From: a candidate division TM6 bacterium UASB340
GTDB lineage: Bacteria > Babelota > Babeliae > Babelales > UASB340
Assembly (NCBI GenBank): GCA_001468925.1
Contig: LDIX01000003.1
Span: 3,018 to 67,017, forward strand
Direction of reading: 5' to 3'
DNA: 64,000 nucleotides
A model generated the notes under the pieces. The model was not told where the DNA came from and searched no databases. It saw only the letters and a program-made list of their open reading frames with translations. Below are positions 9,406 through 29,758 of this stretch, one piece after another (position 1 is the first letter of the stretch; each line of letters begins with the position of its first letter). A program made the translations under genes and the position numbers.

Positions 9406-10294
9406 AAATATAGATGTTTTGGTTACCGGTGGCGCAGGATTTATAGGATCGCATATAATAAAACAGCTAATATCACTAAACGCTAAAGTTACAGTTCTTG
9501 ATAATTTTTCAACAGGAAATTTAAATAATCTTAAAGATGTAATTTCTAAAGTAAACATAATTTATGGTGACATTACAAATCCATTTACCTGTAAAAAGGC
9601 AACGGAAAATAAAAAAATAGTTTTTCATTTAGCGGCTTTAACATCAGTTGCTTATTCTGTATTATATCCCGAAACTTGCTACAAAATAAATATAACCGGA
9701 ACAAAAAATATTCTCGATGCTTGCAAAATAAATAAAATTTCAAAATTTATATTTTCTTCTTCTGCATCTGTTTATGGAAATAAAAACACTGAATGTAAAG
9801 AAACTGATGAACCAAATCCGGAATCACCATATGCGAAAAGTAAACTGGAAGGTGAAAAGCTTTGTTTTGAATATAATCAAAAATATAATTTAAATACTGC
9901 TATCTTAAGATATTTTAATGTTTACGGTGAAAATCAAAATCCAAATGGTGAATATGCTGCAGTTGTGGCAAAGTTCAAAAATTGCATACAAAATAATACG
10001 CCAATAACAATTTTTGGAACCGGAAAACAAACAAGAGATTTTATTGATGTAAAAGAAGTTGCAAATGCAAATTTACTTATAGCCACAAAAGATAATTTAA
10101 ATAACAAAATTATTAATATTGCAACAGGAAAAAGCATCAGTTTACTAGAATTGATAAATCTATTGGAAGCTGATTTAAACAAAAAAGCTAAATCAATAGA
10201 ATTTTTGCCGTCACGAGCAGGCGACATAATCCATTCAAGTGCCAATTGCCAAAAATACAAAAATATAATAAAAGATAATGTATCTTCATTTTAA
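9380..10294 (+). CDS. NAD-dependent nucleotide-sugar epimerase/dehydratase (extended SDR)
   Basis: VLVTGGAGFIGSH Rossmann motif and the YAKSK (YxxxK) catalytic motif. Overlaps the upstream gene by 26 nt. Confidence 0.85.
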   Translation: MNNIKNFYENIDVLVTGGAGFIGSHIIKQLISLNAKVTVLDNFSTGNLNNLKDVISKVNIIYGDITNPFTCKKATENKKIVFHLAALTSVAYSVLYPETCYKINITGTKNILDACKINKISKFIFSSSASVYGNKNTECKETDEPNPESPYAKSKLEGEKLCFEYNQKYNLNTAILRYFNVYGENQNPNGEYAAVVAKFKNCIQNNTPITIFGTGKQTRDFIDVKEVANANLLIATKDNLNNKIINIATGKSISLLELINLLEADLNKKAKSIEFLPSRAGDIIHSSANCQKYKNIIKDNVSSF

Positions 10295-10381
10295 GCCGAA
10301 GTGGCGGAATTGGCAGACGCGCTAGATTCAGGGTCTAGTCTTTGAAAAAAGGTAGGGGTTCAACTCCCCTCTTCGGCACCA
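10295..10381 (+). tRNA. tRNA-Leu (anticodon CAG)
   Basis: GCCGAAGTGGCGGAATTGGCAGACGCGCTAGATTCAGGGTCTAGTCTTTGAAAAAAGGTAGGGGTTCAACTCCCCTCTTCGGCACCA. Perfect acceptor stem GCCGAAG/CTTCGGC, long variable arm, encoded CCA. It starts the nucleotide after the epimerase TAA. Confidence 0.92.
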
Positions 10382-24193: not shown

Positions 24194-24829
24194 CTAATTT
24201 TGATTGTTTCGATAGATAAAAAATTGACCCAAAAACACTAAATTTACCAAAATTCCACGAAAATTGTTCACAATTAGAGGTATTGGTATATTCAAAAGAA
24301 AATTTGCCGAAATTTCACAAAAATTAGCGCTAAGAGATATTAAAATAAAATAAAAACTAAAACCATGTACTGACTTATTTCTGTAAATTTTAAATATTTG
24401 CGGTAATTTTTTCCAAAAGCCAATTCCCACAGGAATCCATCCAATTAAATATGCATAGGAATAAAATTTAAAATATATTAAGTAACCAATAAAAAACAAA
24501 ATAAATATATTTAAAATAAAAATAGAAAAAAATTTTATTTCTTTATCCAAATTATTCTGAGAATATTTAAATCGTTGAAATATAATAAAGCTAACTAAAA
24601 ACGTATAGATTATATTAATTATTTTATAACCAATTGGTAAATTGTTTGCAAAGCTATAAATAAGATAAAAATAACCGGAATTTAGTAATGTCAAAATAAA
24701 AACAGTACTAAGACCATTTGTAGATTTTATTTTATAATTCAATAAAATTTGTGGTATAAGACTCGAAATAAAAAATAAATTAGAAACAATAATTAAAAAA
24801 TTTGCTAAAAATATTTTGTTTAAAAGCAT
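24194..24829 (-). CDS. 7-TM PQ-loop repeat transporter, paralogue 1
   Basis: Two PQ-loop motifs: LIPQILLNYKIKSTNGLS and KLPQIFKIYRNKSVHGFS. About 7 hydrophobic segments. Confidence 0.8.
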   Translation of the reverse strand: MLLNKIFLANFLIIVSNLFFISSLIPQILLNYKIKSTNGLSTVFILTLLNSGYFYLIYSFANNLPIGYKIINIIYTFLVSFIIFQRFKYSQNNLDKEIKFFSIFILNIFILFFIGYLIYFKFYSYAYLIGWIPVGIGFWKKLPQIFKIYRNKSVHGFSFYFILISLSANFCEISANFLLNIPIPLIVNNFRGILVNLVFLGQFFIYRNNQN

Positions 24830-24831
24830 GC

Positions 24832-25524
24832 TTAATCTTGCTTAACTTCCAAAGGTAATAATTCCGGTTTATCTAAAATATAGTTGTGTCTAAATTTATA
24901 ATTCCAAAATTGAAAAATAAATATGAAATATACTAACACACCTCTGGATGCAATCAAGTGCGTTTGCAATGGAAGATTCAATAAATATGCAGCAAACCAA
25001 TCAATCATATTTCCAATTCCTACAAAAGATACTAAAAAAAAGCTAAACCCTTCGACAGATTTAGTCCTTTGTATCTTTAATAACTGAGGAATTTGATAGA
25101 CTGACCATATTATAACCAAAGCCCAACCAATGATATGCCCGGCAATAATTGGGTTTAAATTTAAAATAAAAGATACAAAAATTAAAAATAAAAAATTATA
25201 TAAATACATATTTTTTATTTTAGTATTCAAACTATCGCGACCATATAAAAATCTTTGATAAACCAAAATAGATATTACAAATAATGCCAAAGTCGATCTA
25301 ATTTTATAAGCTAAATGAAAATTTAAAGAGAACATGTATAAAACATTAAAAACATAACCGTCAAAATAAAACATTATATAGAGGTCACTCAAGCCTCTTA
25401 TTGATTTATTTTTGTAATTTAAATAAACCTGAGGCCAAACAGCAAGAACAAAGAAAATATTGACAACCCAGGTGATTATGGTTGTCAATAATGAAGCGTT
25501 AGTCACTTTGGCCCCCCAAGACAA
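24832..25524 (-). CDS. 7-TM PQ-loop repeat transporter, paralogue 2
   Basis: VWPQVYLNYKNKSIRGLS and QIPQLLKIQRTKSVEGFS. TTG start with an AGGGAAG RBS. Its stop is 2 nt before the paralogue 1 ATG. Confidence 0.8.
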   Translation of the reverse strand: MSWGAKVTNASLLTTIITWVVNIFFVLAVWPQVYLNYKNKSIRGLSDLYIMFYFDGYVFNVLYMFSLNFHLAYKIRSTLALFVISILVYQRFLYGRDSLNTKIKNMYLYNFLFLIFVSFILNLNPIIAGHIIGWALVIIWSVYQIPQLLKIQRTKSVEGFSFFLVSFVGIGNMIDWFAAYLLNLPLQTHLIASRGVLVYFIFIFQFWNYKFRHNYILDKPELLPLEVKQD

Positions 25525-25646
25525 CTTTTACTTCCCTAAAAATTTTCCCCCTCACAATGGTAGTATAAAATTTATCCATATTTAAAAACAAGTTTTTTTA
25601 TTTTTTAATATTTTACTTTTAAATAAATGGTTTTTAGTAATTTTAA

Positions 25647-26246
25647 TTATTTAAATTTAATAAACTGTAACAAATAAATCAAATATACAAAAATACCATT
25701 TAAATTATTCAGATAAGTTTGCGGCGGTAACCCCAAAAAAAGAGCTACTATAAATTCAACAAAATTACCAAAACCAATCATAGAAACCAATCCAAAGCTT
25801 AGACCTTTTATAGATCTATTTTGATAATTTTTAAATAATTGAGGAATTTGATAAATTGCCCAAATCAGCATCATTATCCAACCGGAAGCATGTCCAACAA
25901 AAAAACTATTTTTTATAGATAAAAATAATAAAAATATAAAAAACAAAATACTAAATATAAAGAAAATTTTAAAACCTATATCTTTTGATTCAGAATAATA
26001 AAATCTTTGAAAAACTAATGTTAAAACAGCAAAAAATGCAAGCGGCACCATAATCTTATGAGCTAGCGGCAAATTAAGACAAAAAACATAAAACATGTAA
26101 AAACTGTAACCGTAAAAATAGCCTATAAATAAAAAATCGCTCAAACCTTTGGTTGATTTTCGATTAAAATTAAGCCTAATTTGAGGCAAAAGCCCAAAAA
26201 AGAATATGATTTGTGCTATCCATGGAAAAAAATTATTAAAATTCAT
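25647..26246 (-). CDS. 7-TM PQ-loop repeat transporter, paralogue 3
   Basis: LLPQIRLNFNRKSTKGLS and QIPQLFKNYQNRSIKGLS. I mapped seven hydrophobic segments by eye. Confidence 0.8.
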   Translation of the reverse strand: MNFNNFFPWIAQIIFFFGLLPQIRLNFNRKSTKGLSDFLFIGYFYGYSFYMFYVFCLNLPLAHKIMVPLAFFAVLTLVFQRFYYSESKDIGFKIFFIFSILFFIFLLFLSIKNSFFVGHASGWIMMLIWAIYQIPQLFKNYQNRSIKGLSFGLVSMIGFGNFVEFIVALFLGLPPQTYLNNLNGIFVYLIYLLQFIKFK

Positions 26247-26253
26247 AAAGCTC

Positions 26254-26481
26254 TCATACTTTTTCTAAATATTTTTTGTAAATATTTTTCAACAAAATCA
26301 AACTATTTAAATCTACAAACTCTTCGTCACTATGAATACCTCCCCCAATGGGGTCCATTATTATACATGGAAAATTCTTTTGAGTAAAAAATCTTCCATC
26401 TGAAGCCGTATTACAGTTTATAATATCTATATTACTGCGTAAAATATCCGTAATTTTTAGATTAAAATTATCGAGTTTACG
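26254..26481 (-). pseudogene. 3'-terminal remnant of an M20-family (DapE/ArgE-like) peptidase gene
   Basis: Minus-frame translation RKLDNFNLKITDILRSNIDIINCNTASDGRFFTQKNFPCIIMDPIGGGIHSDEEFVDLNSLILLKNIYKKYLEKV*. TSDGRF...GP...IH..(N/D)E.V....L pattern of M20 C-termini, from memory. No start codon or N-terminal part; an in-frame stop lies at 26482-26484. Confidence 0.55.
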
Positions 26482-26591
26482 TTATCTTATCAAATTCAGT
26501 TCAAATTTTAGTTATTAATTACTGCAAAAATTACATCTATCACTTTTTTATTAAATTTTAATCGATTTTTATTACTTTTTAATAAATCCAA

Positions 26592-26632
26592 TTGACAAAT
26601 ACTCTTAATGGGTTATGAATATATATTCATAA
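26592..26632 (+). promoter_or_regulatory. Putative promoter (TTGACA-16 nt-TATGAA) overlapped by the perfect 20-bp palindrome TTATGAATATATATTCATAA (26613..26632)
   Basis: Read directly from the sequence. The palindrome overlaps the -10 region about 50 nt upstream of the DUF5320 start, which is the geometry of a repressor operator. Confidence 0.45.
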
Positions 26633-26680
26633 TAAAAGTAGGTCAATATATTATTAACCAATAATTTAGAAGGTAAAAAT

Positions 26681-26902
26681 ATGCCAAAATTTGATGGAAC
26701 AGGGCCAAGAGGTTTAGGATCAGGAACAGGAAGAGGTCATGGTATGTGCAATAATAATGCCAGAAGAGGTCAAGGTTTCGGATTCGGTAGGGGACGAGGT
26801 CTTGGTCAAGTAGACAATTCAGAAATAGAAGACATTAAACTTAAGAATCAAAAATTAGAACAAGAAATAGAAATTTTGAAAAACATTTTAAGTTCAAAAT
26901 AA
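26681..26902 (+). CDS. DUF5320-family small Gly/Arg-rich protein with a C-terminal coiled coil
   Basis: MPKFDGTGPRGLGSGTGRGHGMCNN...GQGFGFGRGRGLGQ followed by IEDIKLKNQKLEQEIEILKNIL. The N-terminal MPxxDGTGPxGxGxxTGRGxGxC pattern matches DUF5320 as I remember it. Confidence 0.7.
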   Translation: MPKFDGTGPRGLGSGTGRGHGMCNNNARRGQGFGFGRGRGLGQVDNSEIEDIKLKNQKLEQEIEILKNILSSK

Positions 26903-26903
26903 A

Positions 26904-27179
26904 ATGGCAAGACCAAAAAAAATAAGGTTATTAAGGGGTATTCCAAAAGTTAAATATTTCAAACCCAAAGGAATACCTCTTAGCATATTGGAAGAAGTAT
27001 GCTTAACTCATGATGAATTTGAAGCCATAAAACTTTATCACGTAAAAAATTTACAACAAATTCAGGCCGCGCAACAAATGAATATATCACAACCAACATT
27101 TGCCAGAACACTTTGTTATGCCCATAAAAAAATAGCCAATGCGTTAGTTAACGGATTGGCTATTAAAATTGAGATCTAA
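26904..27179 (+). CDS. DUF134 (UPF0251) predicted HTH DNA-binding protein
   Basis: MARPKKIRLLRGIPKVKYFKPKGIPLSILEEVCLTHDEFEAIKLYHVKNLQQIQAAQQMNISQPTFARTLCYAHKKIANALVNG is collinear with the DUF134 consensus (YFKP.GIP...LEEV.LT.DE.EA.RL...). The start lies 1 nt after the upstream stop. Confidence 0.75.
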   Translation: MARPKKIRLLRGIPKVKYFKPKGIPLSILEEVCLTHDEFEAIKLYHVKNLQQIQAAQQMNISQPTFARTLCYAHKKIANALVNGLAIKIEI

Positions 27180-27191
27180 TTGTAAACAAAA

Positions 27192-28148
27192 TTACAATAT
27201 TTTTTTTACAAATTTTAAAGAAATCGCCGCGAATTGAACTTGAATAATAAATGCAACTGATATGATAAGGGCCGAAATACCGGCATTGGGTCCAAAAGTA
27301 GTCATTGCAATAGCAAGAGCAATTGAAAGATTTCTCATAACAGATCCATAAATTAATGCGGAACCATCATATTTATCAAAAAACATTTTTGCCGCAAAAA
27401 AACTTATCATAAAATTAATTATATAAAACAATATTACAGGTACAATAATTTTAATTAATAATTCAGGATGCATATATATAATTTTAGATTTTAAAGCTAT
27501 TGCAACAAAAACAATTCCTAAAACACCCAAGATCGATACCGAAGATATTTTTGGTATAAAATTTTTATTAAATTTTTCTTTATCAAATGATTTAAGTAAA
27601 AAATATTTTGTTAATTGACCTAAAATTAATGGTAAAAATATAACTAAAAAAATCTGTTTAAAAATTATAACAAGAGAAAATTCTACAGCTGTACCCATAA
27701 AAAATTTTATATAAAATGGAGTTGCAATAGAACCTAACAAAAGGCCAATCAATGTCATAATAACTGACGCATTTATATTACCATTGGCAAAACCGGTCCA
27801 TGTTATTGTCATACCGCTTGTTGGCAAAAGTGCAGATAAAAATAATCCCAAGAAAAGCATATTCTGATCTTTAAAAAATAAAAATCCCAAACCATATGCA
27901 ACTATAGGAATTATCAAAAAATTTATAATTTGAGTTATTATATGCAATTTATAATTTTTAATATTTAAAAGTTGCATAAAATCCAAATCTATCATCATTG
28001 GAAATATCATTAAAAAAGTAAACGGCATTATTAAATTCGACAAAAAATTTGATGAAAAAATTAAACCATAAATAAACCCAAGTAACATGCTTACCGTTAT
28101 TGCCATACTTAAGTTTTTCTTAACGCTAAACAAAACTTTTAAAAACAT
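27192..28148 (-). CDS. BART-superfamily membrane transporter (BASS/SBF-like or ACR3-like), about 10 TM
   Basis: LPTSGMTITWTGFANGNINASVIMTLIGLLLG aligns with the BASS motif (P...T..A.G(D/N)(V/I)..SV.MT....LL). ATG at 28148 follows a GGTGGGG RBS. The track TTG start at 28163 is an alternative. Confidence 0.65.
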   Translation of the reverse strand: MFLKVLFSVKKNLSMAITVSMLLGFIYGLIFSSNFLSNLIMPFTFLMIFPMMIDLDFMQLLNIKNYKLHIITQIINFLIIPIVAYGLGFLFFKDQNMLFLGLFLSALLPTSGMTITWTGFANGNINASVIMTLIGLLLGSIATPFYIKFFMGTAVEFSLVIIFKQIFLVIFLPLILGQLTKYFLLKSFDKEKFNKNFIPKISSVSILGVLGIVFVAIALKSKIIYMHPELLIKIIVPVILFYIINFMISFFAAKMFFDKYDGSALIYGSVMRNLSIALAIAMTTFGPNAGISALIISVAFIIQVQFAAISLKFVKKIL

Positions 28149-28169
28149 AACACACCCCACCAAGAAAAT

Positions 28170-28196
28170 TTGGGCCAGGAGTAAATCCTGGCCAAT
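28170..28196 (-). terminator. Intrinsic terminator after pepA (GGCCAGGA-gtaaa-TCCTGGCC)
   Basis: The minus strand reads UUGGCCAGGAUUUACUCCUGGCCCAAAUUUUCUU, about 30 nt after the pepA stop. Confidence 0.6.
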
Positions 28197-28222
28197 ATTA
28201 ATAAATCTTTAAAAAATATCTG

Positions 28223-29758
28223 TTATTTACTTTTATTATAATTTAAAACAAATTCAGAAAGCAGTCTAACGCCTGCACCCGAAGCGCCCTTTCCAATATA
28301 ACTAACACCGGGAACTCCATCTGCAGTTCCTGCAATATCCAAATGGGCCCATTTTGATTTTTCTACAAAATTTTTCAAAAACCAAGAAGCTGTAATTGTT
28401 CCGGCTTTGTAATTTGCAGCACCTGTATTTGCGATATCTGCAACTTCAGATTTGATGGCATCTTTAAAGTCTTCATCCATAGGCAGCGGCCAAACTCTAT
28501 CTCCTGTAACAAGACCAACAGCCTGAAGTTTTGTACCAATATCATCATTTCTAGTCATAAGGCCCGTAAAAAAATGTCCCAAAGCATAAAGACAGGCACC
28601 TGTCAAAGTTGCAATATCTATAATCACTTCCGGATTATAAAATTTTTCTGCATAAGAAAGAGCATCTGCCAAAATTAATCGACCTTCAGCATCAGTATTT
28701 TTTATTTCAGCCGTTTTGCCGTTTAAAAATCTAATAATATCATCTTGCCTGCAAGCTTTACCACTTGGCATATTTTCAACAAGCGGTGTAATTGCAACAA
28801 CATGAACATTCGGTTTTAATTGCGCAATAATTTTCATAGCACCATAAACAGCTGCGGCTCCGGACATATCAAATTTCATTCCGGTCATATAATCCGAAGG
28901 TTTTAAACTTATTCCACCGGAATCAAATGTTACGCCTTTTCCAACAAGTGCAATCGTTGGTATATCTTTTTTATCAGAGTTATATTCTAAAACAACAAAC
29001 TGAGGTTCATTGTCTGACCCTGAGCTTACAGCCAAAAATCCACCCATTGAAAGTTTTTCAGCATCTTTTTTTTCTAAAACTTTACATTCCAAATCGTATT
29101 CATCTGCTAAATTTTTTGCTTCTTGCGCTAAAGCTTTAGGCGTTAAATAATTTGCGGGTAAATCTGCTAAATTTCTTGTAAAATTTGTAGCATTACCAAT
29201 TACAATACCTTCCTGCAATCCAATTGCAAAAGTTTGTTCTTGTTTAGCCCCAACATAAAGTAAAAGTTTTCCTGTAAAGCCTGCTTCATTAATTTTATCG
29301 GATTTAAATTTTATAAATTCATAGTCAGCCATAATTGCCGCAATAACAATTTGTCTTATTAGTCTATCTCGTATGAGACCAAATGGTTTATCATCTTCAG
29401 GCAAACAAATTACCGTATCTTTAATTTCTAACTCTTTTAATTTTAAAACAATCGATCCAATTGCTCGCCTTAGATTTTCAAGTTCATAATTCCAAGCAGT
29501 ATCCAATTTACCTAGACCAACAAAAATTAATTGAATTAATTTATTATCTTTATTTGCAGTCAAAACGAATAAATCGCCTTTTTTTCCGGTAAATTTATGT
29601 TTTTTCAAAATTTCTCTTAAATTTGGATAAAAATCTTTTTCAATACGCTCAAAATCACTTTGCAAATTAATTGAATAAAGACCTTCTTTTAATAAAAAAA
29701 CATAACCTTCAACTTGGTTTTCCCAAAATTTTTTTTCTGTAATTTGAATCTCAAACAT
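28223..29758 (-). CDS. pepA: leucyl aminopeptidase (M17)
   Basis: M17 signature NTDAEGRL (IKNTDAEGRLILADAL), plus VGKGVTFDSGG and DMSGAAAV metal-ligand regions. Confidence 0.93.
   Translation of the reverse strand: MFEIQITEKKFWENQVEGYVFLLKEGLYSINLQSDFERIEKDFYPNLREILKKHKFTGKKGDLFVLTANKDNKLIQLIFVGLGKLDTAWNYELENLRRAIGSIVLKLKELEIKDTVICLPEDDKPFGLIRDRLIRQIVIAAIMADYEFIKFKSDKINEAGFTGKLLLYVGAKQEQTFAIGLQEGIVIGNATNFTRNLADLPANYLTPKALAQEAKNLADEYDLECKVLEKKDAEKLSMGGFLAVSSGSDNEPQFVVLEYNSDKKDIPTIALVGKGVTFDSGGISLKPSDYMTGMKFDMSGAAAVYGAMKIIAQLKPNVHVVAITPLVENMPSGKACRQDDIIRFLNGKTAEIKNTDAEGRLILADALSYAEKFYNPEVIIDIATLTGACLYALGHFFTGLMTRNDDIGTKLQAVGLVTGDRVWPLPMDEDFKDAIKSEVADIANTGAANYKAGTITASWFLKNFVEKSKWAHLDIAGTADGVPGVSYIGKGASGAGVRLLSEFVLNYNKSK

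Follow-up and report, generated by a model that had tools for sequence, protein, structure and literature searches.

The closest described counterpart of the protein discussed here is the DNA-binding domain of Bacillus subtilis DeoR, a member of the SorC family (structures 7bhy and 8r7y), which in 7bhy sits on the operator DNA ATTGAACAAAATTTCAAT, i.e., TGAA-N6-TTCA, and contacts its bases through residue R39 (PMC11229326). The complete DeoR carries in addition a sugar-phosphate effector domain of about 250 amino acids (aa), is tetrameric, and occupies a bipartite operator of 39 bp. A three-helix fold of the same kind is found in region 4 of the extracytoplasmic function (ECF) sigma factors, which acts as a monomer on the −35 element within RNA polymerase. 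In the ArsR/SmtB repressors, which are small autoregulated proteins with palindromic operators over their promoters and an association with metal-handling genes, the metal is sensed by the same winged-helix polypeptide that binds DNA, and TGAA-N6-TTCA is also the core of their 12-2-12 operators. Here, we compare with these systems a two-gene locus found in a 64,000-nucleotide (nt) stretch (hereafter, the window; 28.6% G+C) of contig LDIX01000003.1 from the candidate division TM6 bacterium UASB340, where a DUF5320 gene and a DUF134 gene follow a perfect 20-bp palindrome, TTATGAATATATATTCATAA (26613–26632), the predicted operator.

A small autoregulated helix-turn-helix (HTH) repressor with a palindromic operator is in itself an ordinary kind of system. 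What is new is a predicted role for an old family, an operator with hardly a base changed between Bacteria and Archaea, and a separate partner rich in Gly and Arg. DUF134 (UPF0251), one of the oldest uncharacterised families of Pfam, is present in methanogens, sulfate reducers, Clostridia, Patescibacteria (CPR), DPANN and Asgard archaea, as well as in plasmids, and full-text literature searches found no functional study of DUF134, UPF0251, or DUF5320, nor any mention of the operator sequence. A testable function can now be given to this family, as the locus is probably a self-contained module in which DUF134 acts as an autorepressor on the palindrome and DUF5320 would be the partner carrying the signal.

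The palindrome upstream of DUF134 genes

The DUF5320 gene (26681–26902, plus strand; 73 aa; PF17253) and the DUF134 gene (26904–27179, plus strand; 91 aa; PF02001) are separated by a single nt between the stop codon of the former and the start codon of the latter. Both open reading frames (ORFs) had been described in an earlier reading of the DNA made from its letters alone (the sequence-only reading), and searches with hidden Markov models (HMMs) placed the two products above the gathering cut-offs of the families to which they had been assigned. Upstream of them, an AT-rich spacer of 200 nt (26482–26680) contains the −35 hexamer of the operon promoter, TTGACA (26592–26597, plus strand), and, 16 nt after it, TATGAA (26614–26619, plus strand), a weak candidate −10 hexamer (four of six positions) that was placed by its spacing from TTGACA and lies inside the left arm of the predicted operator. 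The overlap between this promoter and a perfect 20-bp palindrome, also pointed out previously, was thus borne out, with the qualification of the weak −10. The conserved 7-2-7 core of the predicted operator, TGAATA-NN-TATTCA, spans positions 26616–26629, and a Shine–Dalgarno-like AGAAGGT can be read from the sequence 7 nt 5′ of the DUF5320 ATG (26668–26674, plus strand).

One perfect 20-bp palindrome was observed in the window, against an average of 0.46 in Markov-1 random sequences of matched composition, and the significance of the element comes from its conservation across genomes rather than from its rarity within the window. The same sequence was found just 5′ of the respective DUF5320–DUF134 pair in a Babeliales contig (L001), in a locus of higher G+C (L003), and in loci L006 and L007. 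The exact 16-mer ATGAATATATATTCAT was then scanned in one genome per species, covering 185,579 species, which yielded at least 120 loci, and the 120 matches listed, to which the counts of 16-mer loci given here refer, were searched with HMMs built from collected family sequences. A correctly oriented gene of either family was detected less than about 120 nt downstream in 53 of these 120 matches, distributed as 25 loci with DUF5320 adjacent to DUF134, 15 with DUF134 only, and 13 with DUF5320 first, and DUF134 was located within about 1 kb downstream in six further loci. Archaeal hosts among the matches listed included members of the DPANN (Aenigmatarchaeota, Woesearchaeota, Pacearchaeota, Micrarchaeota, and Nanoarchaeota), Thermococci, Asgard archaea, and methanogens (Methanobrevibacter, Methanobacterium, and Methanosarcinales), and the bacterial ones belonged to Patescibacteria, Babeliales, and deltaproteobacteria.

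The association was also examined in the reverse direction, on 80 metagenome loci picked by DUF134 protein patterns alone, 75 of which had usable upstream DNA. A site with three or fewer mismatches to the 16-mer was present within 200 nt 5′ of the first gene in 50 of these 75 protein-selected loci, compared with 9 of 279 control windows of the same loci, and its centre was mostly located 32–41 nt 5′ of the first start codon (that of DUF5320). The consensus derived from them, aTGAATA-NN-TATTCAt, varies only at the central bases and at the outermost base. Moreover, the site is present in loci of Methanobrevibacter, Methanosarcinales, Syntrophorhabdus, and others that encode DUF134 only, showing that DUF5320 is dispensable for the presence of the site. 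Complete genomes with the site include those of Methanobrevibacter acididurans (CP166991), Methanobacterium sp. ACI-7 (CP166866), and Syntrophorhabdus aromaticivorans.

Several loci carry more than one site. Two copies of the operator, 36–240 nt apart, were found in L032 (positions 7791 and 7827), L118 (4868 and 4936), L103 (1332 and 1570), L204 (3354 and 3390), and L128 (976 and 1086), with double or extended sites in L033 and L058 too. In Methanobrevibacter, a full site is followed by an extra half-site, TTATGAATATATATTCATAATAAATATATATTCATAATG. Such doubled sites and extra half-sites suggest cooperative or higher-order binding.

Recognition helix, fold, and promoter geometry of DUF134

The DUF134 protein of the window matched its Pfam family with an E-value of 4.8e-20 (72.4 bits versus a cut-off of 27) over profile positions 5–90 of 98, and presents all the residues that are invariant in the family. 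Its score against the NCBIfam equivalog PRK04217 (52.2 bits) stays below the corresponding cut-off of 115, so the protein is a member of the family but falls outside that equivalog. The protein has an HTH of the sigma-70 region 4/DeoR type with a basic N-terminal arm, and its AlphaFold2 model reached a predicted local distance difference test score (pLDDT) of 92.8. The recognition helix, ISQPTFAR, comprises residues 61–68, of which S62, Q63, P64, T65, and R68 never vary in an alignment of 65 close homologues. A profile search retrieved 3,182 DUF134 clusters (50% identity) at E ≤ 1e-10 among 1.84 billion representatives. The window protein is 60–67% identical to proteins of CPR and DPANN and 63% identical to those of other Babeliales; identities to CPR and DPANN that are as high as, or higher than, those within its own order suggest horizontal exchange among ultra-small and symbiotic lineages.

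Every DUF134 protein reached through the palindrome among the matches listed carries a helix of the form [IV]SQ[PS]T[FL]xR, and this helix is associated with the palindrome TGAATA..TATTCA in the window and in most loci. Subfamilies with a variant helix, in contrast, carry a palindrome of another sequence in the corresponding part of the promoter. Thus, the helix VHQSTFQR is accompanied by ATGCATAATAATGCAT or ATGCATTATAATGCAT, which follow the pattern ATGCAT(A/T)A(A/T)AATGCAT (L165 and L207), the helix ISRATFQR by ATGTGCATATGCTCAT (L183), the helix VSRSTLGR by ATGGGCATATGCCCAT (L208), and the helix VSRQTLAN by TTGGCATATGCCAC or ATGGCATATGCTAT on plasmids of E. coli (L213) and Proteus (L214), respectively. 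Where the recognition helix has Arg in place of Gln, the half-site is G-rich instead of A-rich. Locus L170 was dropped as a further example of this covariation, as its palindrome, CCGAAGTGCACTTCGG, lies directly after the stop codon of the upstream gene and looks like a terminator. In L207, a canonical TGAATA site (position 757) precedes DUF5320 and ATGCATTATAATGCAT (1063–1078) precedes the DUF134 gene with the helix VHQSTFQR, so two specificity classes of DUF134 may be cross-wired in a single organism.

The best match in the PDB by sequence was 7bhy (E-value 5e-5), which was also the best fold match of the DUF134 model (45% identity over 40 residues, with a root-mean-square deviation of 0.7). 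The base-contacting R39 of DeoR aligns with the invariant R68 of DUF134, the helix ISRPTVSR of DeoR corresponds to ISQPTFAR, and the site bound by the DeoR domain dimer has the same TGAA-N6-TTCA core and spacing as the DUF134 palindrome. The constant partnership of DUF134 with the site, the covariation of helix and operator, and the homology to the DeoR domain make DUF134 the likely binder, and we hold it very likely that the protein binds the palindrome. A DUF134 dimer would sit on aTGAATA-NN-TATTCAt with each recognition helix, through the invariant Q63 and R68, reading one TGAATA half-site.

The likeness with DeoR is limited to the DNA-binding domain. DUF134 shares the N-terminal HTH of the sigma-70 region 4 type that characterises the SorC/DeoR proteins, but it is only 91 aa long and has no C-terminal sugar-phosphate effector domain; hence, it resembles the DNA-binding domain of DeoR without being a member of the SorC/DeoR family. 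It also differs from DeoR in having additional beta-strands at both termini, a basic arm at the N-terminus, and DUF5320 as a partner. The resemblance to region 4 of the ECF sigma factors is likewise one of fold (Foldseek probability of about 1.0, with weak Pfam and NCBIfam matches), as DUF134 has no region 2 and, unlike the monomeric region 4, is associated with a symmetric palindrome at the −10/start region. Regarding its functional class, a cognate palindrome overlapping its own promoter was found, and it is conserved together with DUF134.

The position of this palindrome relative to the promoter elements was compared in both domains. In 14 bacterial loci (13 besides the window), TTGACA lies 11–22 nt 5′ of the TGAATA half-site, so that the −10 coincides with either the left arm or the middle of the palindrome. 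In the window, this spacing is 18 nt, and the sole −10 candidates, TATGAA and ATGAAT, are both weak; a consensus promoter scan gave 16 sites in the window versus 14.6 expected, being uninformative in such AT-rich DNA. In 39 archaeal loci, a B recognition element (BRE)/TATA element, AAAnnTTTAAATA, ends about 5 nt 5′ of the palindrome, and in several of the archaeal loci the start codon is found 1–3 nt 3′ of it, from which it follows that those mRNAs are leaderless. In both domains, a dimer on this site would lie over the region where transcription starts, which is the classical geometry of a repressor.

Based on this geometry, the pair would be transcribed as one operon from the TTGACA promoter, and a DUF134 dimer bound at the palindrome, which overlaps the −10/transcription start in bacteria and is immediately 3′ of the TATA box in archaea, would block RNA polymerase and keep the operon repressed (negative autoregulation). 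That DUF134 represses its own operon is fairly likely, and it is the placement of the site that speaks for repression rather than for activation. The sequence-only reading had already considered autoregulation of DUF134 through the palindrome plausible, and this proposal is now strongly backed by the conservation of the operator in both domains, by the helix–operator covariation, and by the homology to the DeoR DNA-binding domain. It provides concrete predictions, namely a defined operator, a recognition code (Q63/R68), and autorepression at the promoter. A nearly identical operator at bacterial sigma-70 promoters and at archaeal TATA promoters is rare and could serve as a model for the action of one repressor on both transcription machineries.

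DUF5320, operon partners, and alternative explanations

The DUF5320 protein matched its Pfam family with an E-value of 6.8e-11 (43.6 bits versus a cut-off of 27); a word-indexed homologue search with it returned two proteins only. The 64 non-redundant homologues collected have in common the motif MPxxDxTGPxGxGPxTGRGxGxC, followed by a stretch rich in Gly, Arg, and aromatic residues and by a charged heptad helix. In the window protein, the N-terminal motif reads MPxFDGTGPxGxGxxTGRGxGxC, including Cys23, with a Ser where the second Pro is usual; it is followed by a linker rich in Gly and Arg and, at the C-terminus, by a heptad helix. A Cys at position 23 is found in 53 of the 64 homologues.

The co-occurrence of DUF5320 and DUF134 that had been noted previously was confirmed, as the pair is conserved and natural fusions of both exist. 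The N-terminal motif of DUF5320 is fused to the N-terminus of DUF134 in proteins P0067, P0050, and P0216, and to its C-terminus, followed by a tail of the type CxCPxCG...C...CPxCG, in P0332 and P0350, which argues for a joint action of the two proteins. In addition, L120 encodes DUF5320 joined to a NifX-like domain, and similar Gly/Arg- and Cys-rich tails are present on the DUF134 proteins P0072, P0080, and P0081 and on a cation diffusion facilitator (CDF) transporter. More specifically, the tail GPGGxCxCPxCG-x(7-10)-PC-x(3-4)-KCPxCG forms the C-terminus both of a CDF cation-efflux protein (L075, 3801–4847) and of many DUF134 proteins (P0072, P0080, P0081, and P0295), and this shared tail is probably a metal-binding module. 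A single-sequence AlphaFold2 model of P0072 was discarded, as its mean pLDDT was 52 and only the C-terminal 35 residues or so reached about 80. The fusions and tails suggest that DUF5320, or the Cys-rich tails in its place, supplies a Cys-based ligand-binding or redox function. The translationally coupled DUF5320 would then carry the signal, possibly the metal, Fe-S, or thiol-redox status through Cys23, although its identification as a metal-, Fe-S-, or redox-sensing partner is put forward only tentatively.

Genes located downstream of the operator in the same operons encode Nitro_FeMo-Co (NifX/orange-protein-like) proteins, MinD-type ATPases with two [4Fe-4S] motifs, and Mrp/NBP35. Other partners include Cation_efflux and YibE/F transporters, a CcdA-like membrane protein with a thioredoxin (Trx) domain, sets of ArsR, Trx_3, and ArsP, an EncFtn-like ferritin, a DtxR-like repressor, radical-SAM proteins, and ARMT1-like proteins. 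This set matches the protein set of the ORP clusters of anaerobes (PMC6345978). NifX/ORP-like proteins, MinD-type ATPases, and Mrp/NBP35 are common to the ORP clusters (the orp operons of Desulfovibrio vulgaris) and to the DUF134 operons of larger genomes, the difference being that the D. vulgaris cluster is driven by OrpR, an enhancer-binding protein, together with sigma-54. The window contains none of those cluster genes. NifX-, MinD-, YibE/F-, CDF-, and CcdA-like genes are likewise absent from the 64-kb window, and in this reduced genome the module is visible only as the predicted autoregulated pair. The candidate regulon elsewhere would comprise ORP-type cluster proteins, metal transporters, and ferritin-like proteins. 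A broader view is conceivable, if somewhat doubtful, in which DUF134 and DUF5320 form an unrecognised system of two domains of life. In this view, a minimal repressor resembling the DeoR DNA-binding domain would act on its near-invariant TGAATA-NN-TATTCA site, metal, Fe-S, or redox status would be sensed by a distinct coiled-coil subunit that is rich in Gly and Arg and bears the Cys (or by a CxCPxC tail fused to the repressor), and the system would have been the original regulator of metallocluster carriers of the ORP type and of metal transporters in anaerobes and ultra-small symbionts (CPR, DPANN, and TM6).

DUF134 was also detected on 186 plasmids, mostly of Klebsiella, Citrobacter, and Escherichia, followed by a gene of the NifB/NifX family and with its own palindrome of the TGGCATATGCCA type about 50 nt upstream. 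Examples are the E. coli plasmid NZ_CP147085.1 (L213, 79227–80110) and the Proteus plasmid NZ_CP063316.1 (L214). These versions make the system tractable in a standard host.

Several observations weigh against DUF134 as the autorepressor of its operon with DUF5320 as its signal partner. About one-third of the protein-selected loci have no recognisable site, many of them being truncated contigs or loci where DUF134 lies inside a longer operon, and no further operator sites beyond chance were found in the 64-kb window, leaving no target there besides its own operon. The helix–operator covariation is based on a handful of variant loci, TATGAA lacks the final T and is not retained by the promoter scan, and Cys23 is missing in about one-sixth of the DUF5320 homologues. 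Nor is the 16-mer unique to DUF134: among the matches listed, 11 Firmicutes loci carry it 0–80 nt 5′ of an ArsR-like gene with a P-type ATPase gene behind it, and four loci have it near a TetR-like gene. The last of these facts makes a trans-acting repressor of the ArsR type the main rival, according to which the palindrome is an operator of the ArsR/SmtB type (CadC/CzrA-like) bound by a metal-sensing winged-helix repressor encoded elsewhere, with DUF134 as its target and not the binder. An ArsR-Trx-ArsP set in the same operon in L176 and L199, and 5 kb upstream in L003, adds to it. This explanation leaves unaccounted for the change of the palindrome with the recognition helix of DUF134; ArsR-like genes are near DUF134 in only 8 of 140 loci and absent among the ORFs of the 64-kb window, and the closest structural homologue of DUF134, the DeoR domain, itself recognises the TGAA-N6-TTCA core. 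Neither DUF5320 nor DUF134 gives a match to HTH_5, the domain of the ArsR/SmtB proteins. DUF134 parallels these repressors in size, predicted autoregulation, operator placement, and metal-handling neighbours, and differs from them in fold and, presumably, in leaving any sensing to DUF5320 or the fused Cys-rich tails. On balance, we regard an ArsR-type binder as unlikely. The same TGAA-N6-TTCA palindrome seems to serve two HTH families that are unrelated to each other.

The remaining explanations are less probable still. Two small, translationally coupled genes behind a palindromic operator could form a selfish or mobile module, similar to toxin–antitoxin systems, which arrived together with the neighbouring transporter as an accessory cassette; the plasmid copies, the high identity between TM6, CPR, and DPANN proteins, suggestive of horizontal spread, and the variable content of the gap between pepA and the PQ-loop genes among relatives (see below) would fit it. 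However, no PADLOC match, phage match, or toxin-like domain was obtained for the pair, in which Pfam recognises only the two DUFs, the plasmid partners of DUF134 are genes of the NifB/NifX family and not toxins, and DUF134 is often alone or heads long metal/cluster operons. As neither flanking repeats nor a compositional anomaly marks the module, and the adjacent M20 remnant predates it or is independent of it, we consider such a cassette very unlikely. A marginally smaller chance is given to the palindrome acting as a hairpin in the 5′ leader of the RNA, or being bound by DUF5320 in place of DUF134. DUF5320 is RGG-like and had been suggested as a possible nucleic-acid binder, and a study of archaeal G-quadruplexes that scanned proteins for motifs listed both DUF5320 and DUF134 of M. 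mazei as carrying an RG-type nucleic-acid-binding motif (PMC7565180). Against binding by DUF5320 stand the 15 listed loci in which the site accompanies DUF134 with no adjacent DUF5320; an all-A/T, loopless stem of 10 bp is a poor RNA hairpin, and the placement of ATG and TATA box around the archaeal palindromes implies that the full palindrome cannot be in the transcript. Finally, the observed-to-expected ratio in the window is what a chance feature of AT-rich intergenic DNA could produce, an explanation already contradicted by the recurrence of the sequence 5′ of genes of one family in dozens of unrelated bacterial and archaeal lineages, and to which we give practically no weight. Binding of the palindrome by DUF134 itself thus stays the preferred interpretation.

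The other users of the motif deserve mention in their own right. Loci in which the 16-mer precedes an ArsR gene and a P-type ATPase, in cad-like operons of Firmicutes and others, are L019, L044, L060, L063, L073, L083, L089, L090, L108, and L116. The 16-mer lies 20–200 nt 5′ of a TetR-family gene in L039, L057, L086, and L122 (from Desulfotignum and from deltaproteobacterial and Bacteroidales metagenome-assembled genomes), and in L039, L057, and L122 this gene adjoins one for a membrane Fe-S protein of about 690 aa. The TetR loci may be further members of the regulon or a third user of the motif.

Neighbouring genes of the module

A transporter gene of the SBF/BASS superfamily (27192–28163, minus strand; 323 aa; PF01758) is convergent to the pair and ends 12 nt from the DUF134 stop codon. 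Its SBF match (E-value 1e-27, 97.5 bits versus a cut-off of 24.3), its orientation, and its spacing agree with the description of a convergent transporter of the BASS/ACR3 superfamily in the sequence-only reading, whereas its best NCBIfam model, ACR3 (TIGR00832), reached 96 bits versus an equivalog cut-off of 282.8, a score so far below that the protein is not a true ACR3. The claim that this transporter belongs to the module was not supported, as an SBF homologue was found near the pair in just one of about 140 other loci (L193), where it is divergent; being convergent in the window, it is not co-transcribed with the pair. On its other side, the block abuts, as had been proposed, the terminator of pepA (28223–29758, minus strand), an intrinsic hairpin located at 28173–28193 (minus strand).

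At the left edge of the block, the truncated M20 peptidase gene reported earlier was found as a pseudogene of the ArgE/DapE type (26254–26481, minus strand), consisting of the last 75 codons and the stop. It aligns to positions 375–442 of 446 of the NCBIfam model PRK08554 (E-value 3.7e-9), so only its C-terminal 70 residues or so are alignable, and it has neither a start codon nor an upstream part. Insertion of the module had been held responsible for the destruction of this gene, and the check in relatives that bears on it was run. The relatives share the gene order metG-sufS-nifU-pepA ... PQ-loop-NurA and differ in the content of the gap between pepA and PQ-loop, which in the window comprises the SBF transporter, DUF134, DUF5320, and the M20 remnant. 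In L212 (SRR6470797; pepA 95% identical), the gap starts with an SBF transporter of 71% aa identity, where the contig ends, and in L209 (pepA 82%) it measures only 358 nt and contains neither remnant nor module. In L211, the TM6 genome GW2011_GWF2_28_16 (pepA 82%), three unrelated genes are followed by an M20 remnant (...GRFFTEKNIPCIIMNPIGGNIHSDNEYVSL...) at 10268–10363 that abuts the PQ-loop gene and is 75% identical over 32 aa to that of the window. The presence of a homologous remnant in this module-free locus means that the remnant is older than, or independent of, the DUF134 module, and the proposed destruction of the M20 gene by the cassette is not supported. Neither a compositional (G+C) anomaly nor flanking direct or inverted repeats beyond AT-rich noise were detected at the module. 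Therefore, the pepA-to-PQ-loop gap is a variable spot, and the module is not demonstrably the destroyer of the M20 gene. The remnant is conserved in GW2011_GWF2_28_16 in spite of being a pseudogene fragment, and it may persist through its overlap with the promoter region of the PQ-loop gene.

A 16-bp inverted repeat with 94% complementarity (27131–27164, minus strand) lies inside the 3′ end of the DUF134 gene and is followed, on the minus strand, by a run of seven T (seven A at 27118–27124 of the plus strand); it may represent the intrinsic terminator of the convergent transporter transcript. A shorter version of this repeat, which arises from the codons of the conserved peptide KKIANAI, is present in L001. 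Finally, beyond the M20 remnant, three tandem PQ-loop genes recognised by Pfam (24194–26246, minus strand) encode paralogues of 211, 230, and 199 aa. One copy is found at the same place in L209, two in L211, and three in the window, a difference in copy number that points to a local expansion of the family.

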